64,000 nt of DNA from the NCBI GenBank assembly GCA_964646415.1, contig CAZYEL010000003.1:11639-75638 (forward strand), in the 5' to 3' direction. This document shows positions 14,516 to 33,549 of this stretch, one piece after another. The notes under the pieces were generated by a model, which did not search any database, was not told the DNA's origin, and saw only the letters and a program-made list of their open reading frames with translations. A program made the translations under genes and the position numbers. Origin of the DNA: an uncultured Candidatus Saccharibacteria bacterium. Its GTDB lineage: Bacteria; Patescibacteriota; Minisyncoccia; UBA6257; 2-01-FULL-56-20. How positions within the stretch are numbered: position 1 is the stretch's first letter; the number at the start of each line of letters is the position of its first letter.

Positions 14516-14534
14516 ACTTACACCTTATCGCTTT

Positions 14535-14562: not shown

Positions 14563-14572
14563 AAAAGCTATC

Positions 14573-17826: not shown

Positions 17827-17832
17827 ATTGTA

Positions 17833-18825: not shown

Positions 18826-19439
18826 AGCTTTTTGAATATATGCACTTCTTTAATTACGGGAAAACTTCGCATGCCTTCCATGACAAATCCATTATGCGTG
18901 AACGCATTGATGTTGGTACTGCGTGAATGCAGCTGAAATCTGTAGAGTTGTGCCACTGTTCTTCCAAGCCAACTATCCTTAACTGGCGAGTTAAGAAAAT
19001 ACCCGCCCTTTTTGAGATAGAAAGAAAGGTTTTTGACCGTTACTGCGGGATCAACGTACTCCAAAACCCCACCAGTCATAATAAGGTCAAATTGCTCGCT
19101 TTGATAGGGAAGCGGCTTGGTTATGTCTCCCGTCAACACTTTCACTCGGCTCTCCAGATTTTTTTCGCGCACTGTGTTTTTCATGACCGCAGCCATATCG
19201 GCGCTTACATCAAAAGCTTGGACAAACGCATTCGGGAATCGCTTGAGGAAAGCAAAGGCATAAAGGCCCGTGCCACAACCGGCGTCAAGCACTTTTATTT
19301 CTGCTTTTCGGTCAAACGGAATAAGCCCAATAAAGTAGCTGACCGCTAATTTATAGCCGGAAAGCCATAAACTGATATCGTACATTTTCGCAATTCCCGA
19401 ATACAAACGATTAGAGTCAGTGCTTATTTTCATGAACAT
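18822..19439 (-). CDS. class I SAM-dependent methyltransferase
   Basis: VLDAGCGTGLYAFAF motif I. Confidence 0.65.
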   Translation of the reverse strand: MFMKISTDSNRLYSGIAKMYDISLWLSGYKLAVSYFIGLIPFDRKAEIKVLDAGCGTGLYAFAFLKRFPNAFVQAFDVSADMAAVMKNTVREKNLESRVKVLTGDITKPLPYQSEQFDLIMTGGVLEYVDPAVTVKNLSFYLKKGGYFLNSPVKDSWLGRTVAQLYRFQLHSRSTNINAFTHNGFVMEGMRSFPVIKEVHIFKKL

Positions 19440-19512
19440 TTATAGTTCCGTCTGTGTAAAAACACTGCGCTCACCATGACAAAAAACGTGCTTGCCGACA
19501 AAAGCCATTTTT

Positions 19513-20289
19513 CTATTCACTGTGCTTATTTCGATTATCCCCCGCTGTTCTCGGTCTCGTTTCAAAGGCAAGCCCCCATGTGGAGAATTTCGCGCGTAAA
19601 GAGGGGGGTTCGTATCCTACTTCATCGAATGCGCGGAGGACTTCTTCTTCCGTAAACAAATTTCCACCCCACATCCACTTCCCGAGAATCCTCGCCATGA
19701 TGCTTTTGCTACAAATGACAAGTACAAATTTCCCATCCGGTTTGAGCAATAGCTTTAAATTTGAGAGTACCTCGGTGAGACGCTCGTGCGGAGCGTAATC
19801 CAACCCCTGGCACACGATAAGGTCAAAGTTTTTCCAGTCTGGCGGCAACTGTTCCTTGAGGCGAAGAAAATCCGCAACGGCAAGGCTCACCTTTCCCACA
19901 GACGGATGCCGTGCAAGCCACATCTGGAAACGCTCAAGCATCTTGGGAGTCAGGTCAAATCCGTACCAGCCGATACCTACAATCCCTTTCTCTCGCGCGA
20001 GGTCAAAAAGTGCCCGAAGAAACGCTCCGGTTCCGCAACCGACATCGAGCACTTTCATACCCGGAGAGAGAAGATTCCTCGACCGGAAAAAATCTCGGAG
20101 CGTCTCCGAATGTCGGAGAATTGTAATCCCGATGTCATAAAGCCATGCCCGCTCCGTAAAAAGTTTTCTTATCTTTGCAACATCCATATTTGTGTTCGTT
20201 TTCTTTAGCAACTTAGCATATTCCTCATATTTATTGCCTTCAGAGTGCGCCGCATGCACCGACTTCCGCGAGTGCCAAAGTCGGTGCAT
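19513..20289 (-). CDS. class I SAM-dependent methyltransferase
   Basis: VLDVGCGTGAFLRAL motif I. The start may be internal. Confidence 0.6.
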   Translation of the reverse strand: MHRLWHSRKSVHAAHSEGNKYEEYAKLLKKTNTNMDVAKIRKLFTERAWLYDIGITILRHSETLRDFFRSRNLLSPGMKVLDVGCGTGAFLRALFDLAREKGIVGIGWYGFDLTPKMLERFQMWLARHPSVGKVSLAVADFLRLKEQLPPDWKNFDLIVCQGLDYAPHERLTEVLSNLKLLLKPDGKFVLVICSKSIMARILGKWMWGGNLFTEEEVLRAFDEVGYEPPSLRAKFSTWGLAFETRPRTAGDNRNKHSE

Positions 20290-20325: not shown

Positions 20326-20499
20326 TTAGTGGCAACAGCCGTGGGAGGCATCGGACTGCTCCTGCGGCAATTTCTTGCGGTATTCTTCCTTGCAGTTTTC
20401 CGAGCAGAACTTTTTGCCGTACCCCTCCGGGTACGTTTTCCCTTTCTGGAGCTCCATCTTACAGACGGGGCATTTCTCCTTGAAAATGTTGAACATGGC
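20326..20499 (-). CDS. small Cys-rich metal-binding protein (YHS/TRASH-like)
   Basis: MFNIFKEKCPVCKMEL...FCSENCKEEY...HGCCH. Confidence 0.45.
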   Translation of the reverse strand, partial: AMFNIFKEKCPVCKMELQKGKTYPEGYGKKFCSENCKEEYRKKLPQEQSDASHGCCH

Positions 20500-20501
20500 T
20501 A

Positions 20502-20723
20502 TTAATCTTTGTTCTCGATACCGAACAACCGGTGAAGCCAACACCAGCCAAGAAAGCTCTCGGCAAGCGCGATCCAGCCGACCACGGCGATGAGGACCGT
20601 GGCCCATTCCGCATCATACTGGGGCGCAACCGGACCGAGCCACCAGAATGCCAGCGCAAAACGCAAAATCCTGTCTACCCTTCCCAAATTTTGGTTCATG
20701 TCGTTGTATGTTGATGCATTCAC
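20502..20723 (-). CDS. small membrane protein (DUF2892/YgaP-like)
   Basis: 73 aa with two TM helices and the conserved W/G pattern. Confidence 0.35.
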   Translation of the reverse strand: MNASTYNDMNQNLGRVDRILRFALAFWWLGPVAPQYDAEWATVLIAVVGWIALAESFLGWCWLHRLFGIENKD

Positions 20724-20741
20724 TCCGTTCGACCTTTTGCT

Positions 20742-23336
20742 TCACGCGCGGCGTTCCGCGTATCCGCGTCCCGCCTTGAGCCGCAATGAATTCAGCACCA
20801 CCGAAAGCGACGAAAACGCCATGGCGGCGGCGGCGAGGACCGGATTCAGCAGCACCCCGAACAACGGATAAAGCGCGCCGGCGGCAACCGGAATGAACGC
20901 CGTGTTGTAGAAAAACGCCCAGAAAAGATTCTGCTTGACGATGCGCAGCGTCCTCCGCGAAAGCGCGAAGAGCTCCGGTATGAGCCGTAGGTCCCCCCGC
21001 ATGAGCGTAATGCCCGCCGATTCCATCGCCACATCGGTGCCTTCGCCCATCGCGATGCCCAAATCCGCCTGCGCCAGCGCCGGCGCGTCGTTGATGCCGT
21101 CGCCGACCATCGCCACCTTTTTGCCCGACTTCTGGAGCTCCGCCACTTTTTGGGCTTTGTGCTCGGGCAGTACGTGCGCCATCACGTGGTCAATGCCGAC
21201 CTGCGCGGCGACCGCCCGGGCGGTCCGCTCGTTGTCTCCCGTAATCATCCAAATCTCCAAACCCGCAGCTTTGAGAAGCGCCACCGTTTCTTTGGCTTCC
21301 GGCTTCACCACGTCGGCGATGGCAATAAGCCCCGCAATCTGCCCCTCTTCGATAAGGACAACGACTGTCTTGCCTTCGGACTCAAGCGCCTGCATGGCTG
21401 CTTCAACGGGTTCGGGGCTCACGTTGAACAATTTTAAAAGTTCCCGGTTGCCCAACGCAGCCAACACGTTCCTGCCGTCTTGTACGATATGCCCCTTAAT
21501 CCCTTTGCCGGGTATCGCCTCGAAGTCGGACACTGCGAACAATCCGACATTCTCTTCGGATGCCTCCTCTTTGATTGCCCGGTCCAACGGGTGAGACGAT
21601 TTCTGCCCCACGCTCGCGGCGGCCTGAATGACCGCTCTCCCCAGAGGGTGCTCCGACTTTTGCTCCAAGCTTGCCGCCATCCGTAGCATGCGGGATTCCG
21701 GATTCTGCATCTTCGCAAAAGGCACGATGTCGGTGACCGCCGGCTTCCCCTGCGTGAGCGTTCCCGTCTTGTCCACAATAATCGCGCCGACGGCGCGGGC
21801 AATTTCCAACGCCGCCGCTTCCCGGATTAAAATGCCTTTCCCCGCGCCCTGGCCGATGCCCACCATCATCGCCATGGGCGTCGCAAGCCCCAATGCGCAC
21901 GGGCAGGCAATGATGAGCACGGCCACAAAATTCACGAGCGCAAAGGTGAATGCCGGCTCCGGCCCCCACGCGAGCCAGACCGCGAACGTCGCGATTGCCA
22001 CCACGAACACCACCGGCACAAAATAAGAAGCGATCAAGTCGGCTAACCTCTGAATCGGCGCCTTGGACCCCTGGGCCTGCTCCACCATCTTGATAATCTG
22101 CGAGAGCACAGTGTCTTTCCCAACTCTTGTCGCGGCGAGCGTAAATGAACCGGTCTGATTGATGGTTGCGCCGATGACCTTCGCGCCGACGTTCTTGCCG
22201 ACCGGCATGCTCTCGCCGGTTACCATCGATTCGTCCACCGACGACCTTCCCTCCACCACTTCGCCGTCCACCGGAATCTTTTCGCCGGGACGCACCACGA
22301 CGCGGTCGCCGACCTGCACCTCCTCAATCGGAATTTCCTGCTCCTTGTTGTCGCGGATAACGCGCGCGGTTTTCGCCGAAAGCTTCATAAGCTTCTTGAT
22401 GGCGTCCGAAGCTTTGCCTTTGGCGAGCACTTCAAGGTAGCGCCCGAGGAGAATCAACGTAATGATGACAGCTGACGTATCGAAATAAACGGCGGGTTTC
22501 ACGCCGCCCTGGCTGAAGAATGCCGGGAAGAAAGCGACGGCGGCGCTGTAGCAATAAGCGGAGAGCGTCCCCACGGCAATCAAGGTATTCATATCGGCCG
22601 TCCGGTATTTAAAGAGGATTTTCAAGCCGCTGTAGAAACGGGCGCCCACCCAAAACTGCACCGGCGTGGTGAGCGCGAGGAGCACCCAGTAATCATTCGC
22701 GATTGCCGGCATGAACGGAAACCACTCCGGGAAACTGCCCAAAAATATCGCGGCGGAAAGAACCGCCCCGACGATTATTTTTCTCTTCAGCGCGGACAGC
22801 TCCCGCTCTCGTTCCTGCTTTTCCCTCTCGAGCAAATCCTGCGCTTCCGATGTTTCCCGCACCGCTTCGTAGCCGGCGTCGTCAATCACTTTTTCTATCT
22901 GCTCCGGCGTAACGGCACGCGCGTTGAACGCCACCTTGGCGCGCGCGTTACTGTAGTCAACCTCGATTTTTTCAATGCCCGGAAGGGTTGTTACCGCTTT
23001 CTCCACCACCATGGCGCAATGAGGCGAATCCATGCCGATAACCCTCAATGCCAAAAATTCCCTTCCTCCCGCGCCCGCTGCCTCGTGCGTCCCGGGCACG
23101 GGGTTCCGTTCCGCGCCCGTCCCTCCCTCACCCGCAAGCTCGTAACCGGCATCGCGCACCACCTTGGCAAAGTCATCGGCGCGTATCCGCGTTTCATCGA
23201 ATTCAACCAAAAGGGTCTCGGCGGCGAAATTGACCTGCGCGCGCGCGGTCCCCGGCAATTGTAAAACCGCCTTTTCTATAGTCGCCGCGCAACTCGCGCA
23301 ATCCATGCCGCGAATTTTGAAAATTCCTTTTTTCAT
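20742..23336 (-). CDS. copA: copper-translocating P1B-type ATPase with two N-terminal HMA domains
   Basis: [12 protein letters not shown] and [12 protein letters not shown] heavy-metal-associated motifs. CPC ([11 protein letters not shown]), DKTGTLT and GDGINDAP motifs. An alternative start at 23378 overlaps the upstream gene. Confidence 0.9.
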
Positions 23337-23337
23337 A

Positions 23338-23805
23338 TTACCGTACATCCCACCTGAACGAACGTTCGGGGACTCCACCGACGTTTTTGATTTTTAACTC
23401 GACATATTGCGGCGTTGGCTGAATCGGATTAAACATAAGTGTCCCTTCGCGATGGTGCCCGCCGGGGCCGGGACCCTCCCACGCCGTCGGCTGATATGTA
23501 TTTCCCTTATCATCCACGAGAACTGCAACTTGCACCACAGCATCATCCAAACTTCCGGAGTGAGTGTCAAAAACAACATCAAACCGCCATATGTTCGCGC
23601 TTGTACCGAATTCTATCGGGGTAACTTTGATTGTTACCGGCGACTGACTGTCGGTTTTCGTTTCCCAACTACGCGGCGCCGTGCTCGCGGGTTGCGAGGC
23701 CTGCAATTCACCGCTCGTCTGAAGCGGTTCACGGTTTTTCGAAACTCCGCTCAAAACGAGCACCACAGCAACCAGTCCGGCGATTATGTACGGTGCATAT
23801 TTCAT
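23338..23805 (-). CDS. secreted/anchored hypothetical protein
   Basis: N-terminal TM helix [18 protein letters not shown], followed by a beta-rich domain. Confidence 0.4.
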
Positions 23806-24233
23806 GTACTTCTGAACTGGAAAGTCCTCTTCGCAATATAGGCGATGCCGCCGAAATTAAATATGATGCCAACCCAGAAAAACTCGATCTGATACTGCGC
23901 GGCGAAGGTGACGATACCGACCGCGCCGAGAATCGGGAGGATGTTCACGAGGTAATGCGCGCAACACGACACCATCGCCGCAGTGGAAGTGGCGCCGGTT
24001 ACTCCCAGCACTTTGCCGCTCCCGCCCGCAACGAGCGTTTTGAGATATACATACAACCCCACTTGGACGCCGAATCCGGCCGCCAAACTCACTATAAAGT
24101 ACCAGAAGGAAAAGAACTGGCTTTGCGCGAAGCCCCACCCCGAAACGAGCGTGAGAATCCCGAAGTACACGCCGAGGAGCACCGCGCTCGCGAGCGTGCC
24201 GTAGAGAACCGGCTTTGCGGAAACATGCGCCAT
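23802..24233 (-). CDS. integral membrane protein (hypothetical)
   Basis: Four TM helices. The probable start MAHVSAKP lies 2 nt after the upstream YHS gene. Confidence 0.4.
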   Translation of the reverse strand: MAHVSAKPVLYGTLASAVLLGVYFGILTLVSGWGFAQSQFFSFWYFIVSLAAGFGVQVGLYVYLKTLVAGGSGKVLGVTGATSTAAMVSCCAHYLVNILPILGAVGIVTFAAQYQIEFFWVGIIFNFGGIAYIAKRTFQFRST

Positions 24234-24235
24234 AA

Positions 24236-24466
24236 TCACTCTTTGACGTACCGCTCGGGATTTTTTTGAAACTCCTGGCGGCAATGATCGGAACAGAAAG
24301 CGTACAGGTGTCCTTTGTACGAAAATGTAACCCCGTCGGTTGCCTGCATGCCGCACACCGGATCTTTCAGAGTTCCCTTCTGCGGTACATTTTTTAATTT
24401 TTTAAACAATGAACCAAACATAGCCTGTAATGCGTTGTGCCATACCGCAACGTTTTTATTGCGCAA
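24236..24466 (-). CDS. YHS (TRASH) domain metal-binding protein
   Basis: DPVCGMQATDGVTFSYKGHLYAFCSDHCRQEFQKNPERY. Confidence 0.6.
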   Translation of the reverse strand: MRNKNVAVWHNALQAMFGSLFKKLKNVPQKGTLKDPVCGMQATDGVTFSYKGHLYAFCSDHCRQEFQKNPERYVKE

Positions 24467-24731
24467 TACTCTCGACCTTTTTCTTCAATGCCGCGAATTC
24501 GCTCCGCGTCGGGACATCAAGCTCCCGCAACACCTTCTTGAGCAACACCTTCAACTCCCGCACCGACGCGCGCCTGCTCGCCTCACCCTCCGCAACAAGC
24601 GCGGCGAACGCCTCTTTTGCCTCTCTCCTCGGAATTTTCGCCGAAATTGCCCGCACAAGCCGCTTCGCTCCCTTCGCCGACGCGCCCACCAGCCCTACGC
24701 TTGCAAGCAATAACTTTTCGTATGATTTCAT
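24456..24731 (-). CDS. phasin-like coiled-coil protein
   Basis: 91 aa helical protein, Lys/Ala/Glu rich, resembling phasin family proteins. Confidence 0.35.
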   Translation of the reverse strand: MKSYEKLLLASVGLVGASAKGAKRLVRAISAKIPRREAKEAFAALVAEGEASRRASVRELKVLLKKVLRELDVPTRSEFAALKKKVESIAQ

Positions 24732-24749
24732 GGATATAGTTATTATTCT

Positions 24750-25472
24750 TTATGCGACCTTTGCAGATACTTTGCGCCATGTTACGTGCTCATACACGCT
24801 TGACCAATAAAACCCGAAAGAAATCGCGAAGAGCAGCTCTTCAAACGGTATGCCCGCGATGAGAATCCCCGAAATAGCATCAAGCCGCCAGACTTGCACA
24901 ACATACCCGGGATACATTGCGATGAGCGTGAAAAAATACACAAAATAAAGCCCGAGAAAAAGAAACGCGCTTGTAATCATTTTCTTTTTCAAGTCCGGTC
25001 GGCAATACCATGTGGCGATGCCACCGAGAACTAAGGAGAACACAGATATGTAGATTGGGTTAAGAGAAGTGGTAAGCGAGAGGACGATAAAAACGATTGG
25101 CGCGGCAAGCAACGCCCAAAGATGATAGCGGTGATGTAACGTATGGCGCGCCTGCACAGGCAGGTGCTTATGCGCCGCGGGGAAAATCCGCTCGTAGAGC
25201 ACGGCCACGATGCCGCCGAGCGCAAATGCGAAAACCAGACTCTCAATATCAAAGCCGGTCCGGTGAGCCAAGTCGAACAAGGACGGCGGGTTCCAATACT
25301 CGGGCACGAACAAGGGTTCGGTGAATCCTAAAAGAGAAGTCCATAAACTGACCGTGAGCATCTCTTTTTTACTCTCCCTGCTTTTCAAGAGCACATAGAT
25401 GACTCCCCAAATAATTATGAGAAGTGCGCTCCATAACGCCCATGCAAATTGCGGTTCATGCACTGCATTCAT
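24750..25472 (-). CDS. polytopic membrane protein, possibly lycopene-cyclase-domain family
   Basis: Seven TM helices. Two PxEE-type motifs (FTEPLFVPEYW, IAGIPFEELLFAISFGF). Confidence 0.35.
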   Translation of the reverse strand: MNAVHEPQFAWALWSALLIIIWGVIYVLLKSRESKKEMLTVSLWTSLLGFTEPLFVPEYWNPPSLFDLAHRTGFDIESLVFAFALGGIVAVLYERIFPAAHKHLPVQARHTLHHRYHLWALLAAPIVFIVLSLTTSLNPIYISVFSLVLGGIATWYCRPDLKKKMITSAFLFLGLYFVYFFTLIAMYPGYVVQVWRLDAISGILIAGIPFEELLFAISFGFYWSSVYEHVTWRKVSAKVA

Positions 25473-25699
25473 GGGTTATTTTTTTCTACAGAATTGCCTT
25501 CGGGGATATACTGCAGGGGACTCTTTTGAAACTCTTCCTTGCATGTTTTGCAGCAGAGATGATATACGTTGCCGCCGTACTTCAAAATGGCGTACTCCTC
25601 TTTTTTCCGCAACCTCTTTTTACAGACCGGGTCGATGTAGAACATAACGATACCGTTTTTTATTTTAGTGGGGATGTTGCGACCTTCGACGTATCCCAT
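25469..25699 (-). CDS. YHS (TRASH) domain metal-binding protein
   Basis: DPVCKKRL...KYGGNVYHLCCKTCKEEFQKSPLQY. Confidence 0.6.
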   Translation of the reverse strand: MGYVEGRNIPTKIKNGIVMFYIDPVCKKRLRKKEEYAILKYGGNVYHLCCKTCKEEFQKSPLQYIPEGNSVEKNNP

Positions 25700-26319
25700 T
25701 TAGGAATGAACGCCGGTGTTTCTTTCGCGTACACGCTCCACGCGTCACCGAACTCTTTCTCCGCATCGGCTTCTTCGCTTTTCGCCAATTTTATATACAT
25801 CCAGACCAGTACGGGGAACATGATGAGCGTAAGAAGCGTCGGCCACTGCAGAAGGAACCCAAACATGATGAGCACAAACCCCGCATACTGCGGATGGCGG
25901 ATGCGCGCATAGGGACCGGCGGTTGCGAGCGTATGACTTTTTTGGGCCGTATAGAGCACCTCCCACGCGCGGACGATAAGCATAAAGCCATAACCGATAA
26001 ACACGTAGCTCACAATATGGAACGGTCCGAAGTGCGGGTCGCCGCCCCACCCAAACAGGTCTTCAAGGAGATGCCCGGAATTGTGCGAGAAAATATCCAT
26101 GCCGGGAAATGTCGCGGTGAGCCACCCGGAAAGAAAGTAGATGGTGAGCGGAAATCCGTACATCTCCATGAACAACGCAACCATGAACGCCGAGAACACC
26201 CCCAATGAACGCCAGTCGCGAACTTTTTTCGGCCTCGTAAAACTAAATGCGAAAATGACCGAGACCAGCGAACTCACGATAACAAGCGGCCAGAGACCAT
26301 ACGCGGGAGAGGACGGCAT
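25660..26319 (-). CDS. isoprenylcysteine carboxyl methyltransferase (ICMT)/PEMT-family membrane methyltransferase
   Basis: RIRHPQYAGFVLIMFGFLLQ motif and TM helices. The start MPSSPAYG is chosen to abut the upstream gene. Confidence 0.55.
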   Translation of the reverse strand: MPSSPAYGLWPLVIVSSLVSVIFAFSFTRPKKVRDWRSLGVFSAFMVALFMEMYGFPLTIYFLSGWLTATFPGMDIFSHNSGHLLEDLFGWGGDPHFGPFHIVSYVFIGYGFMLIVRAWEVLYTAQKSHTLATAGPYARIRHPQYAGFVLIMFGFLLQWPTLLTLIMFPVLVWMYIKLAKSEEADAEKEFGDAWSVYAKETPAFIPKWDTSKVATSPLK

Positions 26320-26324
26320 AGCGG

Positions 26325-26573
26325 TTAGTGAGTATGAGGCTCGTCTTCCCGGCGCTCCCGGCCGGAGTCGCCGCCGTGCCCGCCGTGGCCCTTGAACATC
26401 ATCCAGACATGTGCGACGACAAAAATACCGATAAGAATTGGCCAGAGGTACCCGTTTGAAGACAACGTATCCCCGCCAAGAAGTACAAAACCCAACAGGA
26501 GGAGACAAGGAATCATCATCCACAGGATGCCCTTATGCCCGCCGTTTTTACTGTTGTTTTCGTGCTCGTGCAT
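26325..26573 (-). CDS. DUF2933-family His-rich small membrane protein
   Basis: MHEHENNSKNGGHKGILWMMIPCLLLLG...HGGHGG. This family is commonly adjacent to P1B-ATPase genes. Confidence 0.5.
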   Translation of the reverse strand: MHEHENNSKNGGHKGILWMMIPCLLLLGFVLLGGDTLSSNGYLWPILIGIFVVAHVWMMFKGHGGHGGDSGRERREDEPHTH

Positions 26574-26578
26574 AGCGG

Positions 26579-26845
26579 TTATTTTCTTACCAAGCTGGAA
26601 TTGTGCATCCACACGTAGTACCACCCGAAGAGCCAGGCGAAGACAAACATATAGACCGCGCCAAGGAGCACACTCCCGGGACTAATCCATGTAAATCCCG
26701 GCAACGTCTCAAAAAGCGAGTGGTGCAGCTCTACTCCTCTCGCGCTTCGGAGCGGAAGAAACCCGCCAACAAGACAAATGACATATGCGACTTCCGCACC
26801 CAGTACGCACTTCCAACCGTATAACTTAAGCGACAGTTGTCCCAT
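26579..26845 (-). CDS. small membrane protein (hypothetical)
   Basis: 88 aa with two TM helices. Confidence 0.3.
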   Translation of the reverse strand: MGQLSLKLYGWKCVLGAEVAYVICLVGGFLPLRSARGVELHHSLFETLPGFTWISPGSVLLGAVYMFVFAWLFGWYYVWMHNSSLVRK

Positions 26846-26861
26846 GTGTTATTTTGATTAA

Positions 26862-27065
26862 TTAACCGACATATTTTTCGGGGTCATTGACGAAGTGCTC
26901 CCTGCACGTTTTAGAACAGAAATAAAAGACCTCCCCGTGATGCTCGGCATGAAATTGTGTATTCGCCGAATCAACCTCCATGCCGCAGATCACATCAAGC
27001 GCCTTTTCTTCCGGCTCAATGTGCATGCCGACCTTTTTTAACTCTTTGCTGATATTACTTGGCAT
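26862..27065 (-). CDS. YHS (TRASH) domain metal-binding protein
   Basis: DVICGMEVDSANTQFHAEHHGEVFYFCSKTCREHFVNDPEKY. Confidence 0.6.
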   Translation of the reverse strand: MPSNISKELKKVGMHIEPEEKALDVICGMEVDSANTQFHAEHHGEVFYFCSKTCREHFVNDPEKYVG

Positions 27066-27070
27066 AGATA

Positions 27071-27463
27071 TTATTGCGCAGCAGTATCGACGATAGTCCT
27101 CACAAGCGCATCAATCTCTTCCGGCAAGCTGCCCAACTCCGCCTTCGGGAAAAAGTGCCGCAACACCACGGGCCGCATGCCGGAGATAACCGTGGTACCA
27201 TCCTTCACATACACGTTGACCTTGCACGGCATGCACAGCCCGAGCCGCATGTCGGCCTCCAAAAACGCGCTCGCGTAGCGCGCATTGCAGAACTCAATGA
27301 TTTTGAAGGGGGCTCGCGCAAATCCCTTTTCTCCGAGCGCTCTTTGCACATCGTGGATGTGGAGCACCCGCATACCGGCTTTTACGACTGCCTCCTCCGC
27401 GCTCTTGGCCGCCGCATCAAACTCCTTGGCGGTCGTAACCGTATAATCAAAACCTGATTCCAT
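27071..27463 (-). CDS. DUF302-domain protein
   Basis: 130 aa with a DUF302-like pattern, found in metal-responsive operons. Confidence 0.5.
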   Translation of the reverse strand: MESGFDYTVTTAKEFDAAAKSAEEAVVKAGMRVLHIHDVQRALGEKGFARAPFKIIEFCNARYASAFLEADMRLGLCMPCKVNVYVKDGTTVISGMRPVVLRHFFPKAELGSLPEEIDALVRTIVDTAAQ

Positions 27464-27467
27464 GGGA

Positions 27468-27740
27468 TTATTTATTCGACAGCGTGTAGACCTTTATGAG
27501 TTCTTTGACGGCGTTCTCCTCTTCCCCCGCGTGCGACAACTGATGCTTCACATGCGTGCGAAGATGGTTTTCGAGAAGCAGCGCATCGAGACTCTTGAGC
27601 GATTTCTGGATAGAGAGCGACTGCAGAAGTAGGTTTACACAATACTTCTCTTCCTCAATCGCTTGCGCAAGCCCCCGCATCTGCCCCTCAAGAATCTTCG
27701 CGCGGTGCACCGCGCGCTTCTTGAGTTTTTGGTTGACCAT
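27468..27740 (-). CDS. csoR: CsoR/RcnR/FrmR-family metal-sensing transcriptional repressor
   Basis: RAKILEGQMRGLAQAIEEEKYCVNLLLQSLSIQKSLKSLDALLLENHLRTHV carries the Cys-His metal-ligand positions of the DUF156 family. Confidence 0.7.
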   Translation of the reverse strand: MVNQKLKKRAVHRAKILEGQMRGLAQAIEEEKYCVNLLLQSLSIQKSLKSLDALLLENHLRTHVKHQLSHAGEEENAVKELIKVYTLSNK

Positions 27741-27796
27741 GCGTATAGGGTATGCCCCTATATCCTATATGTCAACTATCTGCCTGTGTATAACTT

Positions 27797-28234
27797 TTAG
27801 TCAAAACGCAACTCAATTTTATCCTTGTCGCGCATGAGGTAGCTCTCGTACTCGGTGTTCTCTTCCCCATTCACCGTCATCTTCATATTCGCGCCGAAAG
27901 ACCGCATATCCTTACCCCACACTTTGAAGAATGAGCCCAGTTTCACATCGTCTTTAAGAACTCGCCCCAGGAATTCCAAGTGTATCTGGCCGGTAGCGTC
28001 ATGCGTGTGGACGCTCTGCTCGACAATGCCGAGACCTAAACCCGACGGGATTTCTTGCTTGGCGCCTTTCACGTAGATGGCGAGTTCAGGATGCCAATGC
28101 AAGCCCCTTCGCGCAAGAACTTCTCCTTCGGGAACCGGAGGACGGGTTGCAACGTACCACCCAATGAGTCCAATGGCTGCCACTGTCCCCAGAATCCACC
28201 TTCCGCGTTTTGCGAGTCTGAAAAAATTTTTCAT
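27797..28234 (-). CDS. membrane-anchored hypothetical protein
   Basis: N-terminal TM helix plus a soluble domain. Confidence 0.4.
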   Translation of the reverse strand: MKNFFRLAKRGRWILGTVAAIGLIGWYVATRPPVPEGEVLARRGLHWHPELAIYVKGAKQEIPSGLGLGIVEQSVHTHDATGQIHLEFLGRVLKDDVKLGSFFKVWGKDMRSFGANMKMTVNGEENTEYESYLMRDKDKIELRFD

Positions 28235-28263
28235 TATAGTTCAGTGTTCAGTAATGTTGGGCA

Positions 28264-29190
28264 TCACACCCCGCACCCGCCGGTTGGCTGACTTTCCTCG
28301 CGCGGGATGCGGCTCGCAATACTCCGGAAGCCGGAAATGCTTGAGTAATCCACGCCCAGAATCTCCTTCGGGTTTGCATTTGCGGGAGCTCCACCCCGCG
28401 ACGTGAGGTACTTCGCAATCGTCGCGTACTCGTTCGGAAACCAAAATGCGTTCACCGCGAGCGCCGCGCGGTACATTTCCTCCTCTGTAGCGCCTCCCGA
28501 CGCGAGGAATTCCAAAAGTCCCAGCATCGCCATGCCGTGGTTGCAGTCGGGAAAGTATGTGGAGTTGTCACAGCACGGACGATAGACATTTTTTGCCACC
28601 CCCTCCACGCGCGCTTGCTGTTCTTCGGTGAGCGTGAAAAATGCATGTTTGCTGTAATGTTGCATTGCATCTCCCTTTGCAAGCGTCCATCCGCCAGTCG
28701 AGGCGAACCGTCCCGCGCCGCCATACCGCGGGTCCATCATCGGTCCTTCCTCCAAAATCCGGTTTTTGTTGCCTAGCCCCAGCGCCCAGAAAATGTTCAA
28801 AAGAACGCCTGCACTGTTTCGGTCAATCGTCAGGTTCCCGTTATCCAGCCCGGTGAGCAACTTCCGCTCCCGCTCCGGCATGCCTCCCCGCGCGGCGTAA
28901 ATTGCATCGAACGCTTCCCGGTCAATCACGCCCGCGCCCACAAGTTTTGCGCCGAGGTCGCCCCACGCAATAGGCAATTTCACCTCTTGCGGAGCAAGGG
29001 CACCGCCCTCATGACCCGCGGCCGAATTAAGAACGGCGGCACTGCTCTTCGCGCCCGGGGATGCCGGCGTCGCCTTCATGCCCGTCGTGTATATCCACGC
29101 CCCGCCGAGGATAACCGCTGCCGCGACGATGCTCGCCGGAAGAAACGAGCTGCCCGCTCCTTTTTTATTATCCACTGTGTCTTGTTCCAT
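28264..29190 (-). CDS. membrane-anchored hypothetical protein with Cys/His cluster
   Basis: N-terminal TM helix. ..VYRPCCDNSTYFPDCNHGMAML.. cluster. Confidence 0.4.
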   Translation of the reverse strand: MEQDTVDNKKGAGSSFLPASIVAAAVILGGAWIYTTGMKATPASPGAKSSAAVLNSAAGHEGGALAPQEVKLPIAWGDLGAKLVGAGVIDREAFDAIYAARGGMPERERKLLTGLDNGNLTIDRNSAGVLLNIFWALGLGNKNRILEEGPMMDPRYGGAGRFASTGGWTLAKGDAMQHYSKHAFFTLTEEQQARVEGVAKNVYRPCCDNSTYFPDCNHGMAMLGLLEFLASGGATEEEMYRAALAVNAFWFPNEYATIAKYLTSRGGAPANANPKEILGVDYSSISGFRSIASRIPREESQPTGGCGV

Positions 29191-29210
29191 TGTTTTCGAA
29201 AAGTATGTTG

Positions 29211-29441
29211 CTACGACTCTAAATCCCTCTTCTTCTCCTCGAACTCTTTCCGCTCAATTTCCCCTTTCGCGTAGCGCTCTTTGAGGATTTCAAGCGCGGA
29301 CGCATTCCGCTCCCCGCGCGTGCCGCGCGCCTCGCGCACGAGCCACACGACGAAGAGGATAATCGCCGCCCAAACGACCACCATCATGAGCGGCCCGAAC
29401 ATGCCCCATCCCCACATATGATCCCCATAGTAATTCCACAT
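29211..29441 (-). CDS. SHOCT-domain small membrane protein
   Basis: TM helix, then LEILKERYAKGEIERKEFEEKKRDL (SHOCT-like). Confidence 0.45.
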   Translation of the reverse strand: MWNYYGDHMWGWGMFGPLMMVVVWAAIILFVVWLVREARGTRGERNASALEILKERYAKGEIERKEFEEKKRDLES

Positions 29442-29453
29442 AGTAATGATTGA

Positions 29454-29825
29454 TTATTGTACCGGACTCGCGAGTTTGCACCCGCTTGCCTCGGAGAGCT
29501 TCCGCAATCCCTGCTCGCCCACAAGCCGTTCCCCGCTTCCCGTAATCCATGTGGGATATCCTTCTATTTTTTCCGCCGCGCACCGCACACGCTCCACCGG
29601 ACACTCCACGTACGGGACAAGCCGGAACGAATCCCCGAAAGTGCGCTTCTCATTTTGGCAATGCGAGCACCAGTTTGCACCATACATCGTAAATTTTTTC
29701 TCCGCAAGGCACTGCGCGAATGCGTCGTACGTCCCGCTCGCCGGAGCGGGATTCCAAAGCAACCATCCTATTCCCGCCGCCACCACCACCACGAACCCAA
29801 GCCCCATAAGCGTTTGCTTTTGCAT
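29454..29825 (-). CDS. membrane-anchored thioredoxin-like protein (CxxC)
   Basis: YGANWCSHCQNEK active-site motif, preceded by an N-terminal TM anchor. Confidence 0.55.
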   Translation of the reverse strand: MQKQTLMGLGFVVVVAAGIGWLLWNPAPASGTYDAFAQCLAEKKFTMYGANWCSHCQNEKRTFGDSFRLVPYVECPVERVRCAAEKIEGYPTWITGSGERLVGEQGLRKLSEASGCKLASPVQ

Positions 29826-29831
29826 ATAGAG

Positions 29832-30329
29832 TTACTCGTCGCAGCAATCGACCAATTTATTCACGATATCGCCGAAGGTCCAAGGTTTCTCGGCCTTTGC
29901 CGCCTCTTTGAAACCCGACGGGTCGATAAGTTTCAGCCGCAGCGCCCAAAACATCGAGTATGTTTTGTATGCGCGGTCGAACATCTCTTTGGCCTCCGCC
30001 TTTTTGCCGTCGCCATTCAGCTTCGTACCCACCTCCATAAGACGCATCGTCGTGGCAAGGAGGTGCTTCGTAATGCACCACGTCTCCCCCTCGTGGCGCG
30101 AAACCATTTTCCCCAAAAGCTCCTTCCGCATCTCGCGCACTTCTCCGAGCAGCGCAAGGTACTCGGGTTTCTGGGTCTTCGCGTTCGTGAAAAACATATG
30201 CTCCTCCAAACTGATAAGATTCATCACCGCAACGCTCAAATCCTCTTCGGTCGAGAGGTCCACCGTGCCGGAGCGCTTAAGCCCTTCCACCTTTTTTACC
30301 ACTTCCGCAAACCGTTCTTCTTGTGTCAT
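29832..30329 (-). CDS. hypothetical cytoplasmic protein
   Basis: 165 aa ORF with good coding periodicity, ending ..VDCCDE. Confidence 0.4.
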   Translation of the reverse strand: MTQEERFAEVVKKVEGLKRSGTVDLSTEEDLSVAVMNLISLEEHMFFTNAKTQKPEYLALLGEVREMRKELLGKMVSRHEGETWCITKHLLATTMRLMEVGTKLNGDGKKAEAKEMFDRAYKTYSMFWALRLKLIDPSGFKEAAKAEKPWTFGDIVNKLVDCCDE

Positions 30330-30333
30330 GTCA

Positions 30334-31116
30334 CTAAAGAAGGAAAATTGACAACCCGAGGAGAACCGCCCCGATTCCTCCCCACAACCTCATATTACCC
30401 GTTTCGCGTTTTTTCCACTCCTGGAGGCGCCCCAGCACGCCCGCATCGCTCCCCAGCACAAGAATCAGGATAAGGGGAAGGATGAAGATGAAGTTGTAGA
30501 GCGCAAGGTATCCCATGCCGCTCGCATACGTCCGCGCATCGTGCAGAAGTCCCAGGATAAGGAGATACGGACCCCCCGTGCACGGGAATTCGCATACTCC
30601 CACAAGCCCCCCCAGGAGAAACGCCGCGGGAAGCGAGGAACGCTCCATAAGCGCGGCAATCGGCTTATGCGAGATGCCGGGAATTTTGAGTTTTATCGGG
30701 AACGACGGGAAGAAGTGATTCACCAAGCTCAAGAGTCCCGCCGCAACCATGAGGGAAGCCGCCGCTTTCGCCATAAAGTGCGGCGTGTTGAAAAGGTGAA
30801 GCGCCTGCAAGAGCCCCACGCCGATCAAGAAGTACGCCGCAAAAACCCCGAGGATATAGAACCCGCCGATCCAGAGAATCCGCGCGCGTTCTTTTTGCAG
30901 GCTCACCAAGAATGCGATCGTGAGAATCAAAACCGAGAATGCACACGGGTTGATGCTGTCTAAGACCGCCGCGACGAGGACGAGCGGCAAGAGCCATTTC
31001 CCTCCCTGTGACACGCTCCAGAGCGCATCCGCCCCGAAGTTCCCCGCCTTGAGCACAAAGGCGCCGCCGATGAGCACTACCGCAATTCCCAGCACAATCC
31101 AAAAACGTTTCGTCAT
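30334..31116 (-). CDS. ccdA: cytochrome c biogenesis CcdA/DsbD-family thiol:disulfide transporter
   Basis: Six TM helices with Cys in TM1 (INPCAFSVL) and TM4 (CEFPCTGGP). Confidence 0.65.
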   Translation of the reverse strand: MTKRFWIVLGIAVVLIGGAFVLKAGNFGADALWSVSQGGKWLLPLVLVAAVLDSINPCAFSVLILTIAFLVSLQKERARILWIGGFYILGVFAAYFLIGVGLLQALHLFNTPHFMAKAAASLMVAAGLLSLVNHFFPSFPIKLKIPGISHKPIAALMERSSLPAAFLLGGLVGVCEFPCTGGPYLLILGLLHDARTYASGMGYLALYNFIFILPLILILVLGSDAGVLGRLQEWKKRETGNMRLWGGIGAVLLGLSIFLL

Positions 31117-31123
31117 GAGATTC

Positions 31124-31630
31124 TTACGGCGTTACGTCCGCAGAAAACGCGAATTCGACCGGAGTACCATCGTCGGTTTCGAGATATACGACCCGCTCGA
31201 TCTTCCCGATGCCTGCGGGCCCGTGCGCCGCAGGGTCAAACACCGCCTCCACCGTCGCCTCTTCACCCGGAGCTACCGCCGCATCAATCCCCGGAATAAA
31301 CCCGTGCCCAGGCATGCCGTACGGACCCACTTTTTTCTCTGCGGTCGTAAGCCGCGCCACGGTACACATACACGACGTGTAAAGCTTCGTCACCTTTACC
31401 GGAGCGGTGCCCGTGTTGCGCACCTTAAACTCGTGCGACACCTTCCCCGCGCGCATCGAAACGCTCCCGAACGAGAACTGCGCCTCATCCGCGCGGAGCG
31501 CGGAGGCGCCCGTCTTCACAATGCTCGCCGTCTGGTTTTCCTTCGGTTGCGCCCCTCCCCACACGAACAATGCCCCCACCACTACTACCACAAACGCAAT
31601 GCCAACCAGTATATTTTTTGAGTTTTCCAT
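31124..31630 (-). CDS. DUF1573-domain secreted protein
   Basis: TM/signal MENSKNILVGIAFVVVVV, then FKVRNTGTAPVKVTKLYTSCMCT, typical of DUF1573. Confidence 0.45.
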   Translation of the reverse strand: MENSKNILVGIAFVVVVVGALFVWGGAQPKENQTASIVKTGASALRADEAQFSFGSVSMRAGKVSHEFKVRNTGTAPVKVTKLYTSCMCTVARLTTAEKKVGPYGMPGHGFIPGIDAAVAPGEEATVEAVFDPAAHGPAGIGKIERVVYLETDDGTPVEFAFSADVTP

Positions 31631-31716
31631 TTTGTAAGCGCACACCAAAAATCGCTTCCCCAACAAGCTCCGTACGCGCCAAATCGCGACCACGATTCGG
31701 CTGTGTACAAAAACCC

Positions 31717-32118
31717 TTAGGAAAGCGAAAAAACGCGCCGCTCACGAAGCGTGAGCCAGCGATAGAAACGCGGTGCGCGTTGCCGGAGCGGATGCATCCC
31801 ATGGAGCGCCGCCGCGAACCGCGCCACGGGAGGCGGCGCGACGAGCTCCGGAAGCACCGCGCCGAATGCCATAACAATAAGAAGCAAAAGCCCTGCCCAC
31901 GTTATGATATTTGCCGCAGAAAAGCTTTTGAGCAAATTTAGATGGAATGCCGCGACTACCGCCGTTCCCGCAATCCCGGGACACGCGTTCCCGCCTGCGG
32001 CAGTCCGTGCAAGACAATTGATTTCTCCCATGCTGTGAGACATCGCGAACGCCCCAAACACCGCCATACCGGCGAATGCGCACACGATGAGAATACCGAG
32101 GAACGTTTTCGTATTCAT
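31717..32118 (-). CDS. integral membrane protein (hypothetical)
   Basis: Three to four TM helices. CLARTAAGGNACPG. Confidence 0.35.
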   Translation of the reverse strand: MNTKTFLGILIVCAFAGMAVFGAFAMSHSMGEINCLARTAAGGNACPGIAGTAVVAAFHLNLLKSFSAANIITWAGLLLLIVMAFGAVLPELVAPPPVARFAAALHGMHPLRQRAPRFYRWLTLRERRVFSLS

Positions 32119-32190
32119 ATATATTCCAGTATACTCCCCAACCCTGTTTCTTACAACTTGCCTGCCGATAAAACCCGTCGCGGTAAATTG

Positions 32191-32574: not shown

Positions 32575-32886
32575 ATGACGAGGGTAAAAAGGCCGCAACT
32601 CAAGAGCGGGTGGTGCTTCGCGATAGTCAATAACCGACTCGCTGAAATTTCGTTTGAGAAACGATACGGAATTTGGGGGCACTGCTACGTGAAACGAGAG
32701 GAATATAAAACGAGGCAAGAACAAAAATGGATAAGAGAGGATACGGAAAAGTGCCGGTTCACGTATAGGAAGGGGTACTACTTTGATAGAATTCGCGGCA
32801 CGAAACAGAAAGTGCCGCCGAGACGTAAAATATCCCCCCCGCTCGATAAAAAGAAAACGATACTTCTCAAAGACATGATTCAGTAG
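32575..32886 (+). CDS. hypothetical protein (cargo of the repeat-bracketed cassette)
   Basis: 103 aa ORF. No recognisable motif. Confidence 0.25.
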   Translation: MTRVKRPQLKSGWCFAIVNNRLAEISFEKRYGIWGHCYVKREEYKTRQEQKWIREDTEKCRFTYRKGYYFDRIRGTKQKVPPRRKISPPLDKKKTILLKDMIQ

Positions 32887-33149
32887 GTATGCGAACCGCG
32901 CCGTTTAACCTGCGCCACGAGGACTTTTCGGCTCTGCTGATACACTCGATAAAATATCCTGTATGCACCAATTCTCCGGCGCCAACGGTTTTCTTCCCCT
33001 TTCAACTTCTCTATATCGCCTGCGTAGGGATTGTCCGCAAGCGAGCGAACCGCCTCAAAGACCCTTCGCTTATCATCCGGTGACCAGCGCTTGGTTGTCC
33101 GATACACGTCCGGCTCAATTTCTAACTCCCAGCTTTCGCCTGAATGCAT
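32880..33149 (-). CDS. RelE/ParE-family type II toxin
   Basis: ...NRWRRRIGAYRIFYRVYQQSRKVLVAQVKRRGSHTY. The start MHSGESWELEI is chosen to limit overlap with the antitoxin. Confidence 0.6.
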   Translation of the reverse strand: MHSGESWELEIEPDVYRTTKRWSPDDKRRVFEAVRSLADNPYAGDIEKLKGEENRWRRRIGAYRIFYRVYQQSRKVLVAQVKRRGSHTY

Positions 33150-33348
33150 CAAGGGAAAGAGTTTTTCCTGCCGCGAAGTTTTTTTCCGCTTTTTCAAACG
33201 TGCGCCGCTGCGCCGCGGTCATGGAAACCGTTTTGTATTTGCGCGGCGGCGCAAAACGGGCGCGTTCTTGCAACGCCTCGTATTCCTCCTTAGGCACAAG
33301 GAGAAGGTCTTTCCCCGCAAGATGCTTTGGAATTGTGATAGTTGCCAT
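33115..33348 (-). CDS. antitoxin (AbrB/MazE-like or Phd-like) partner of the RelE/ParE toxin
   Basis: MATITIPKHLAGKDLLLVPKEEYEAL. Overlaps the toxin start. Confidence 0.5.
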   Translation of the reverse strand: MATITIPKHLAGKDLLLVPKEEYEALQERARFAPPRKYKTVSMTAAQRRTFEKAEKNFAAGKTLSLDAFRRKLGVRN

Positions 33349-33446
33349 ACGCGCATCCTACCACGAGAGCACCCGAGGTATCAATCGCCCCCTAAGTTCT
33401 AATGGCTAAATTCTAATGGCTCTAGCGTGCCTCTGCCTCTAACGGG

Positions 33447-33499
33447 ATGTGCGCAATCTGGGGACTCCCGCCCCTCAAACCCTTATGCCGCAAGGGTTT
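33447..33499. repeat. ~50-bp direct repeat copy B
   Basis: gtgcgcaatctggggactcccgcccctcaaacccttatgccgcaagggttt. Confidence 0.6.
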
Positions 33500-33549
33500 C
33501 CGCTGGCCCTATTGCGGTATTTCCGTATATGTCGCATAATATCGCGGGC

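Follow-up and report, generated by a model that had tools for sequence, protein, structure and literature searches.

Parcubacteria have genomes of about 1 Mb and almost no respiratory or biosynthetic capacity, and the question raised here is what a dense run of copper and thiol-redox genes does in one of them. The run occupies positions 20326–32118 of a 64,000-nucleotide stretch of contig CAZYEL010000003.1 (assembly GCA_964646415.1), which in its full length is referred to as the window. A preliminary description of these genes had proposed an elaborate extracytoplasmic copper-handling relay that would be unusual for a reduced genome. Our analysis points, with moderate confidence, to a chromosomal, lineage-conserved copper-homeostasis cluster of Parcubacteria (Paceibacteria, Liptonbacteria-like), in which repressor-controlled Cu(I) efflux is combined with an extracytoplasmic thiolate relay that would be reduced through a CcdA/thioredoxin-like route.

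The dense one-strand run of about 12 kb reported earlier is confirmed: 23 co-directional open reading frames (ORFs) fill the region with intergenic spacings of −40 to +86 bp, and every plausible gene lies on the minus strand. The same gene calls were found on 13 independent Logan contigs carrying an identical copy of the 308-aa protein g07 (genes without a family name are numbered by their position in the run). The cluster appears to be organized as two transcription units. The first encodes, 5′ to 3′, g01, DUF1573, a CcdA-like transporter, g04, the thioredoxin (Trx)-like g05, SHOCT, g07, and g08, and the second, which follows a promoter-bearing gap of 56 bp, encodes CsoR, DUF302, YHS1, a DUF5676-like protein, a DUF2933-like protein, ICMT, YHS2, a lycopene-cyclase-domain protein, g17, YHS3, g19, g20, CopA, a YgaP-like protein, and C56. 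About ten of the 23 products are uncharacterized Cys/His-rich proteins. Several genes were absent from the earlier list, namely those for the lycopene-cyclase-domain protein, the DUF5676-like protein with two transmembrane (TM) segments, the YgaP-like TM protein, g19/g20, g04, and g17 (91 aa).

All eleven family assignments of the preliminary description were upheld, four of them (CcdA, thioredoxin, DUF2933, and the fourth YHS protein) at the profile or family level only, whereas CopA, CsoR, three YHS proteins, DUF302, SHOCT, DUF1573, and ICMT exceeded the curated Pfam cutoffs in hidden Markov model (HMM) scans. CopA matches the E1-E2 ATPase family (PF00122, 4.7e-63) and the HAD family (PF00702, 1.3e-37) with DKTGT at residues 526–530, and both of its proposed HMA domains are present, the first canonical (CASC) and the second degenerate (SPHC). 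Its translation shows CPC in TM6, YN in TM7, and MxxSS in TM8, which in the classification of P1B-type ATPases is the signature of the P1B-1 Cu(I) pumps. The SEHPL motif of its nucleotide-binding domain is tandemly duplicated (residues 565–592, positions 21573–21656).

The three canonical YHS mini-proteins were recovered at 4.5e-11, 2.8e-10, and 4.8e-14 (43.0, 40.4, and 52.5 bits vs. a cutoff of 30.3). Their proposed Cys-rich relative, C56, keeps a C-x22-C-x3-C pattern but stays below the Pfam threshold, both for YHS (E = 0.009, 16.4 bits) and for zf-FLZ (2.9e-4). All four YHS/TRASH-type proteins align on three cysteines spaced C-x19-22-C-x3-C, as is characteristic of TRASH domains. The multiplicity of YHS proteins that had been pointed out earlier also stands, as none of 83 related loci has three or more YHS/TRASH ORFs within 10 kb, and it is the full accessory set together with this YHS count that sets the window genome apart. 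No stand-alone CopZ-like HMA gene was found among the 23 genes. For the His-rich DUF2933 protein, the window copy itself gave no significant match (E = 9.8), but five of 11 aligned family members did (best 2.6e-16), so that by transitive homology it is a putative, divergent member. An NCBIfam scan added nothing beyond a weak ArsG-like match for CcdA. DUF302 (5.6e-16), SHOCT (1e-7), and ICMT/PEMT (1.9e-7, 31.8 bits vs. a cutoff of 24) were assigned by Pfam, the last with an invariant RHPxY motif of the S-adenosylmethionine (SAM) site (R141-H-P-Q-Y145). CzcN belongs to the same Pfam family as this methyltransferase (PMC7563307).

Loss of the metal-ligand residues on alignment had been named as grounds for rejecting the copper-handling proposal, and the residues are kept. 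Candidate Cys, His, and Met ligands are invariant or nearly so across 12–67 homologs in g01, DUF1573, CcdA, g04, g05, g07, g08, the 2-TM protein, g19, g20, C56, DUF302, and CsoR, and the invariant sites in g01, g07, g08, and g20 bear out the mention of several anchored hypothetical proteins with Cys/His clusters. The CcdA-like transporter has no single-sequence Pfam match, yet when 23 orthologs were combined into a profile, Thermus CcdA (5vkv) was matched over positions 43–258 (E = 1.1e-11), and C58 and C179 (P-C motifs in TM1 and TM4, 96% and 93% conserved) align with both catalytic cysteines of 5vkv. It has six hydrophobic segments, one ortholog matches DsbD_TM weakly, and at a bare 260 aa it lacks the periplasmic N- and C-terminal domains of the ScsB type. 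Its candidate electron acceptor g05, the anchored thioredoxin with WCSHCQ noted earlier, is encoded two genes downstream; by itself it reaches only E = 0.028 in Pfam, while a match to the Trx-like domain of Synechococcus VKOR was obtained with its family profile (E = 1.3e-25), VKOR Trx domains and protein disulfide isomerase being its nearest solved relatives. DUF1573 was likewise supported (7.5e-14, 52 bits vs. a cutoff of 26.1), and its C87-M-C89 is 98% conserved. This CxC occupies the U-G-C position of selenoprotein members of the family (PMC9312934), and a redox or metal-related function is thereby supported. Among PDB sequences, no relative of this subfamily turned up in a profile search.

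Where present, g04 always follows CcdA. It has 3,492 homologs and no Pfam family, identities are about 70–77% among the 120 matches listed, 53 of 165 positions are invariant, and the window copy (29832–30329) is 72% identical to its counterpart at positions 7424–7936 of a 62%-GC betaproteobacterial contig (locus L093, discussed below), which makes the constraint on it unusually strong for an unannotated protein. Structure prediction gives a four-helix bundle whose CC tail is flexible; a fold search with this model gave generic bundle matches only, and a profile search of PDB sequences no relative.

Another unnamed family is that of g07, the 308-aa "PCCDNSTYFPDCNHG" protein, with at least 4,934 homologs, 544 clusters at 50% identity, and no Pfam model. 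Among the matches listed, identities are 53–75%, every named one belongs to Patescibacteria, and none has a Pfam domain. The protein carries YRPCCDNSTYFPDCNHG, with YRPCCxNSTYFPDCNHGMAMLGLLE invariant at 28534–28584, i.e., an invariant CC-x8-C-x-H, as well as a C-terminal Cys tail, GGCGV, at 28267–28281. A confident AlphaFold model (pLDDT 81, core >90, pTM 0.75) predicts that the protein is anchored at its N-terminus, that its ectodomain is mainly helical, and that the invariant Cys of the C-terminal tail sits in a disordered stretch, and neither Foldseek against the PDB nor a profile search of PDB sequences gave a match. Some g07 homologs are longer; their N-terminal extensions match no Pfam family, and one class of extension was recognized as g19 by HMMs built from the cluster proteins. 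For g19 itself, 2,527 homologs were found, again without a Pfam family, and JGI labels a few of them "Cu+-exporting ATPase"; profile searches of PDB sequences found no relatives of g08, g19, or g20.

How far the cluster is shared was assessed by scanning related loci with iterated HMMs built from the window proteins, a locus being regarded as complete when g07 was flanked by 6 kb or more on either side (n = 36). The g07 gene occurs in at least 582 GTDB species genomes; the 80 that were fetched belong to Liptonbacteria, Jorgensenbacteria, Nomurabacteria, Giovannonibacteria, Wolfebacteria, Kaiserbacteria, and other Paceibacteria. Across Paceibacteria, a single strand repeatedly shows the order g01-DUF1573-CcdA-(g04)-(Trx)-g07-(accessories)-CopA, and in many of these loci two CopA genes flank the core. 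CcdA is present in 97% of the complete loci, g01 and CopA in 94% each, and DUF1573 in 75%, followed by the 2-TM protein (50%), CsoR (44%), g04 (42%), g19/g20 (33%), Trx (31%), and DUF302 (31%). Two related loci, L010 and L011, also share the flanks of the window, with RF-FtsE-FtsX on one side and ArsR, a class II ribonucleotide reductase, and CobA on the other. At L011, a second Trx-like gene and DsbB (PF02600) lie directly upstream of g01 (4780–5706), so the cluster sometimes includes an oxidative-folding pair beside the CcdA route.

Given this recurrent order, the shared flanks, and an ordinary nucleotide composition, the core is conserved synteny and not a recent acquisition. The island has a GC content of 55% compared with 53% for the window, its GC at third codon positions (GC3) is 0.67 compared with about 0.70 in housekeeping genes, and its tetranucleotide distance is ordinary; the proposed check for horizontal acquisition thus turned up no sign of it. 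The view that such a set is unusual for a reduced genome does not hold either, as the core is the norm in this lineage. The preliminary description had also held that universally conserved synteny would tell against its proposal; such conservation is found for the core, while the accessory genes vary.

The regulator at the head of the second unit is a CsoR by PF02583 (2.3e-17, 63.6 bits vs. a cutoff of 22.8). In an alignment with the solved CsoRs 2hh7 and 4adz, its ligand positions C34, H59, and H63 form a C-H-H set, as in the Thermus protein 3aai, and not the x-C-H-C fingerprint of the Mycobacterium tuberculosis and Streptomyces CsoRs, for which reason it is classed as a C-H-H variant of the CsoR family. 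Directly upstream of csoR stands TTGACA-t-ATAGGATATAGGGGCATACCCTATAcgcATG. This includes a perfect 7-5-7 palindrome, TATAGGG-GCATA-CCCTATA (27744–27762), which is unique in the window and belongs to an element that ends 3 nt before the csoR ATG; it was set aside as the operator because only its left part is conserved in orthologs, and the G-tract repeat was taken as the candidate instead. The search for CsoR operators suggested earlier yielded an element before csoR, but no copy in the island of the canonical CsoR palindrome TACCCnnnnnGGGTA.

A comparison of 33 regulator genes from the related loci separated two classes. Class A regulators (L011, L012, L014, L017, L023, and others) have the canonical TACCCC..GGGGTA between −35 and −10, whereas class B (the window, L010, L013, L030, L050, L074, L077, and L085) is marked by the N-terminus MV[ND]QKLKKRA[VI]HRAK and an upstream TTGACA-N-ATAGGG-N2-3-[TG][AG]GGGG[TC]ATA; L050 has one of each. 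Regulators with the C-H-H fingerprint are found in either class, those with C-H-C only in class A. As judged from the conservation of the G-tract element upstream of class B orthologs in eight other genomes, a G-tract operator overlapping the csoR promoter is the probable binding site of the repressor. A copy with two mismatches overlaps the promoter-like site before g01 and is not conserved in most orthologs. A perfect class B site stands before a second unit, g01-CcdA-g19-g20, at L077.

Several of these proteins also occur in copper contexts outside the lineage. L093, a 62%-GC contig of a betaproteobacterial metagenome-assembled genome, encodes three CusF proteins, CopZ, CopA, and CsoR and shares with the window g19 (55% identity), g20 (50%), DUF5676, DUF1573 (45%), the CcdA-like transporter (60%), g04, ICMT (64%), SHOCT (52%), and the lycopene-cyclase-domain protein (48%); it lacks g01, g05, and g07. 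L095 has the order CopZ-CopA-DUF2933-[g19::g07 fusion]-CcdA-Redoxin-ICMT. At L096 (63% GC), a membrane domain with GCPxCG (CPxC) is fused to g07 in a protein of about 500 aa, followed downstream by a CcmH::DUF1573 fusion, two more DUF1573 proteins, a PCYCGC protein, two COX2-type cupredoxins, of which the one translated (154 aa) has the CuA-type motif CxxxCxxxHxxM, and, farther on, a P-type ATPase. Thus, g07, g19, DUF1573, and CcdA are tied to copper independently of the window, and g07 is physically coupled to a membrane Cys pair in fusion proteins. The PCYCGC-motif protein of L096 (PF13798, 3873–4184) contains a segment, FPCYCGCGAMGH, that loosely resembles RPCC...DCNHGMAM of g07, with no detectable homology.

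Taken together, the copper and thiol-redox unit of the preliminary description stands, and a relay best fits the linkage, the fusions, and the ligand conservation; its working can be outlined as follows, with the mechanism inferred. Rising cytoplasmic Cu(I) would release the C-H-H repressor and derepress the csoR-C56 unit, upon which CopA would pump Cu(I) out of the cell. The three YHS/TRASH proteins, C56, and DUF302 probably buffer cytoplasmic Cu(I) and pass it to CopA in place of CopZ. The g01-g08 unit and g19/g20 would together form a relay of thiolate and imidazole sites on the extracytoplasmic side of the membrane, where expelled Cu(I) could be bound by the anchored proteins g07, DUF1573, g20, g08, and g01. 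The CcdA-like transporter would move reducing equivalents outward, possibly from g04 or a thioredoxin, to g05 and from there to the Cys sites, so that CcdA and g05 could keep these sites reduced and repair copper-catalyzed disulfides. The flexible C-terminal Cys tails of g07, g04, and C56 are probably swinging arms for hand-over. Throughout this outline, we infer the metal specificity of the unnamed proteins, the way in which electrons and metal flow, and the regulation by copper.

A number of points weigh against such an outline. Copper control of the redox and relay half is less certain in this genome, because the first unit lies upstream of the operator behind its own promoter-like site with a degenerate copy of the motif. 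A sensor site of the C-H-H type is also less specific for copper than one of the C-H-C type. For g07, g01, g08, g19, g20, g04, and the YHS proteins, conserved residues and context suggest a putative role in metal binding. The protein g05 is closest to the oxidizing, DsbA-like Trx domain of VKOR, and its CxHC is typical of oxidants, so electrons could flow in the opposite direction. As most loci lack g05 and g04, CcdA must often use another acceptor. Finally, the high conservation of g07 (55–60% identity) and g04 (at least 70%) suggests an enzyme or an obligate complex and not a simple chaperone.

The high conservation of g07 would also fit a specific partner, as expected if the cluster served the maturation of cuproproteins. 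CopA would then supply copper, g07, DUF1573, and g20 would be insertion chaperones analogous to Sco and PCuAC, and CcdA/Trx would reduce target cysteines as TlpA does in CuA assembly. L096, where the g07 fusion and three DUF1573 genes adjoin two COX2-type cupredoxins and a CcmH-like thiol reductase domain is found, points in this direction, and the two CopA genes flanking the core in many Paceibacteria recall the specialization of CopA1 and CopA2. However, no gene for a cupredoxin, an oxidase, or another cuproenzyme was seen in the island or in the conserved flanks of the window, the pump stands under a copper-responsive repressor family typical of detoxification, and L093, its counterpart in Proteobacteria, has the CusF, CopZ, and CsoR genes of a classic resistance island. 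We regard the maturation reading as unlikely.

Separate promoter-like sites, and a clear operator before csoR only, raise the alternative that two independent neighbors are merely syntenic: a CsoR-CopA efflux operon with accessories, and a general disulfide-maintenance module (g01-DUF1573-CcdA-g04-Trx-g07) for secreted or pilus proteins. The relationship of g05 to oxidative-folding Trx domains and the DsbB and second Trx-like genes upstream of g01 at L011 would suit this arrangement. Linkage to CopA has nevertheless been maintained in 94% of the complete loci, across divergent families and despite differing surrounding genes, the DUF1573-CcdA-g04 triad recurs in the proteobacterial copper island, g07 is fused to g19, a protein otherwise encoded next to CopA, and at L077 the g01-CcdA-g19-g20 unit stands behind a perfect class B operator. 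Independence of the two halves thus seems rather improbable.

Doubtful to a further degree is the idea that g07, with Cys-pair membrane partners (g19 or the CPxC domain), DUF1573, and CcdA, constitutes a new kind of envelope enzyme system and not a passive chaperone, namely a thiol oxidoreductase dependent on copper, by which disulfides would be made or reshuffled in organisms without quinones. CopA would supply the metal, the VKOR-type Trx g05 would be a client, and g07 would stand in for the quinone-dependent DsbB/VKOR. This would explain the enzyme-like conservation, the fusions to membrane Cys-pair domains (as in VKOR-Trx), and the near-universal linkage to CopA, and would suit the descent of g05 from VKOR-type Trx domains; one single-cell genome of Parcubacteria was noted to be without quinone biosynthesis genes (PMC4508563). 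The presence of DsbB beside the cluster at L011 counts against it.

It is very improbable that the cluster handles another thiophilic metal (Ag, Hg, Cd, or Zn), with g19 and g07 as a MerT/MerP-like uptake pair: the vicinal cysteines in a TM helix of g19, the less specific C-H-H site of the repressor, and the ArsR-family regulator in the conserved flank would be compatible with this, but the CPC, YN, and MxxSS motifs of CopA are those of Cu(I)/Ag(I) P1B-1 pumps, Pfam scans of the cluster proteins gave no MerA, MerB, or Mer HMM matches, and all outside contexts are copper-specific (CusF, CopZ, and CuA cupredoxins). A recently acquired mobile resistance island, which the IS30-like gene and ParE toxin-antitoxin pair directly upstream (32880–34412) and the accessory modules common to Proteobacteria at 45–72% identity might suggest, is highly unlikely and for the core largely refuted by the ordinary composition, by the same flanks and order in L010, L011, and L013, which are without the IS, by the lack of tblastn matches to g04 among 72,556 plasmids (PLSDB), and by the appearance of the insertion sequence (IS)/toxin-antitoxin pair as a later insertion.

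Between a 602-aa Cys-rich paralog and g01 lie the ParE toxin (32880–33197), a putative antitoxin (33115–33348), and the IS30-like gene (33573–34412). In the latter, only an HTH_38 match and no rve domain match was found, and the transposase may be degenerate; because these genes are missing at this position in L010, L011, and L013, they probably inserted later. The other edge of the cluster, from the CopA block to ArsR, holds a variable insert (18415–20289) that encodes two SAM methyltransferases and a membrane protein with an HXXEE motif (GC 43–50%), of which L010 keeps only the HXXEE protein and L011 none. The paralog upstream of the IS/toxin-antitoxin pair is one of five Cys-rich proteins of about 600 aa (40–645, 721–2529, 3166–4914, 4961–6772, and 35045–36853) with 34–42 Cys, 9–11 CxxC motifs, 38–42% mutual identity, no Pfam family, and no hydrophobic segment, and such a paralog is the immediate upstream neighbor of the cluster in five of the 36 complete loci. 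The relay had been suggested to feed or protect this family. Lacking a hydrophobic segment, the paralogs are probably cytoplasmic and feeding by an extracytoplasmic relay is unlikely, although they may be protected indirectly through a lowering of cytoplasmic copper.

Elsewhere in the window, a 996-aa secreted-looking protein with weak matches to reprolysin-type metallopeptidases (9991–12981; GC 41.5%, GC3 0.375 vs. about 0.70 in its neighbors) is the clearest compositional outlier and a better candidate for horizontal transfer than the copper cluster. A cobalamin riboswitch (7232–7399) stands upstream of the gene for a 661-aa protein that has prenyltransferase/SQHop-cyclase-like and DUF4430 domains (region 7232–9393), and the region 13958–18171 encodes CobA (14573–15124), a B12-dependent class II ribonucleotide reductase (15085–17826), and the ArsR-family regulator (17833–18171). 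At L010 and L011, this neighborhood of B12 salvage and use keeps its synteny with the copper cluster. The features of the cluster itself are listed in Table 1.

Table 1. Genes and candidate regulatory sites of the copper cluster, in order of transcription (window coordinates)
Feature	Coordinates	Strand	Basis or remark
Promoter-like site TTGTAA-17-TATACT upstream of g01	32128..32156	-	putative function, weak; overlaps 2-mismatch class B G-tract copy at 32130-32147
g01, 133-aa 2-TM protein; outward loop with invariant C35, C46, H59	31717..32118	-	no Pfam family
DUF1573, membrane-anchored, Ig-like; invariant TSC-M-CT, M106, AHGP	31124..31630	-	Pfam and alignment
CcdA-like 6-TM thiol-disulfide transporter; canonical C58, C179, extra C175, H107, H113, H150	30334..31116	-	profile match to 5vkv
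g04, 165-aa cytoplasmic four-helix-bundle protein (predicted); invariant C85/H89, C-terminal CC-x-E (CCDE)	29832..30329	-	no Pfam family
g05, membrane-anchored Trx-like protein; active site WCSHCQ	29454..29825	-	family profile match to VKOR Trx domain
SHOCT-domain small membrane protein	29211..29441	-	Pfam
g07, 308-aa anchored extracytoplasmic protein	28264..29190	-	no Pfam model
g08, 145-aa anchored protein; invariant H46, H48, H76, H78, H85, E87	27797..28234	-	no Pfam family
TTGACA promoter element and candidate repressor operator	27744..27781	-	ATAGGATATAGGGGCATA at 27751-27768; palindrome at 27744-27762
CsoR/RcnR-family repressor; fingerprint x-C34-H59-H63	27468..27740	-	PF02583
DUF302 protein, cytoplasmic; conserved C59, C80	27071..27463	-	Pfam
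YHS/TRASH mini-protein 1 (CGM...FCS..C)	26862..27065	-	Pfam
DUF5676-like 88-aa 2-TM protein; conserved C13, C24, H41, H81	26579..26845	-	orthologs match DUF5676
Putative divergent DUF2933 member, 82-aa His-rich 2-TM protein	26325..26573	-	via family members
ICMT/PEMT-family membrane methyltransferase (by family); RHPQY motif	25660..26319	-	Pfam
YHS/TRASH mini-protein 2, variant (CKK...LCC..C)	25469..25699	-	Pfam
Lycopene-cyclase-domain membrane protein	24750..25472	-	PF18916
g17, 91-aa helical protein without Cys or His; weak phasin-like matches	24456..24731	-	Pfam scan
YHS/TRASH mini-protein 3 (CGM...FCS..C)	24236..24421	-	Pfam
g19, 143-aa 4-TM protein; invariant M-x-S-C-C-x-H-Y in TM segment	23802..24233	-	no Pfam family
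g20, 155-aa anchored protein; invariant H82, GGHHR	23338..23805	-	always paired with g19
CopA, P1B-1 Cu(I) ATPase	20742..23348	-	Pfam and motifs
YgaP-like TM (DUF2892) small membrane protein	20502..20699	-	Pfam
C56, 56-aa TRASH-like Cys-rich mini-protein (CPVC...FCSENC); C-terminal HGCCH tail	20326..20496	-	sub-threshold YHS match and Cys pattern

Hundreds of species keep a multi-gene copper/thiol cluster despite their small genomes, and the window genome spends about 12 kb on it. Such retention suggests that these episymbiotic or groundwater organisms are under major selection by copper at the cell surface, whether as a stress or as a metal to be used. A Pfam model is lacking for at least nine protein families of the cluster, seven of them with invariant Cys/His sites, and g07, g04, and g19 each have thousands of members. 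Since ICMT, DUF2933, DUF5676, SHOCT, and the lycopene-cyclase domain are common to proteobacterial metal islands and equally unexplained there, one solved system would annotate many genomes. The most rewarding targets for study are g07, with a confident predicted fold and no solved relative, and g04, with about 70% identity across phyla.

Among known systems, the second unit comes closest to the CsoR-CopZ-CopA operons of Gram-positive-type bacteria (Bacillus subtilis, M. tuberculosis, and Thermus thermophilus), in which a repressor likewise heads an operon ending in a P1B-1 ATPase and the operator overlaps the promoter, as the candidate operator would here, and with Thermus CsoR (3aai) it has the C-H-H ligand set in common. 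In contrast to these operons, the cluster has three YHS/TRASH proteins, C56, and DUF302 in place of CopZ, its candidate operator is a G-tract element (ATAGGG..GGGGYATA) and not TACCC..GGGTA, and about 12 extra genes stand between repressor and pump. The accessory families surrounding CopA and CsoR are those of proteobacterial metal islands such as L093 (CzcN-type ICMT, DUF2933, SHOCT, and the lycopene-cyclase domain); these islands, however, use CusF and periplasmic components of the RND (resistance-nodulation-division) era and lack g01, g05, and g07 of the parcubacterial core.

For the first unit, the closest functional precedent is provided by the Scs system of Salmonella and the DsbD pathway; in the Scs system, a DsbD-type reductase and Trx-fold Cu(I)-binding partners are linked to copper tolerance (PMC10907172, PMC3322552). 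Here too, a transporter of the DsbD superfamily is encoded with an anchored Trx-fold protein and other Cys proteins in a copper context, and the proposed task, keeping envelope thiols reduced and binding Cu(I), would be the same. The order DUF1573 (Ig-like)-CcdA-Trx-like moreover mirrors the alpha-beta-gamma domain order of DsbD, although DUF1573 corresponds to nDsbD by analogy only. The differences are that the transporter is a minimal CcdA and not ScsB or DsbD, with the domains occurring as separate proteins, that g05 is closest to VKOR-type Trx and not to ScsC or ScsD, that g01, g04, and g07 have no counterpart, and that the host is a monoderm-like cell of the candidate phyla radiation without an outer-membrane-bounded periplasm. 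The cluster thus resembles, by analogy, a DsbD/Scs system split into separate proteins, which may be Scs-like in its working but is not a member of that family.

CuA assembly by TlpA-ScoI-PcuC similarly pairs anchored Cys/His copper chaperones with a CcdA-fed thiol reductase, and L096 places g07 and DUF1573 beside CuA cupredoxins, but the cluster proteins resemble neither Sco nor PCuAC in sequence or fold, and the window island encodes no CuA protein. The mer relay (MerP-MerT and the C-terminal Cys tail of MerA) also combines vicinal cysteines in a TM segment (g19), an outward Cys protein (g07), and C-terminal Cys tails, a likeness of design only, as no homology was detected and there is no reductase. 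In the searchable literature, no description of the cluster was found, copA being merely recorded as present in Patescibacteria (PMC8672522). Compared with all of these systems, what is new is the combination of CsoR-CopA efflux with a split, CcdA-based envelope thiol system, the core of which holds a Parcubacteria-wide protein without a fold match, along with several further unnamed families.

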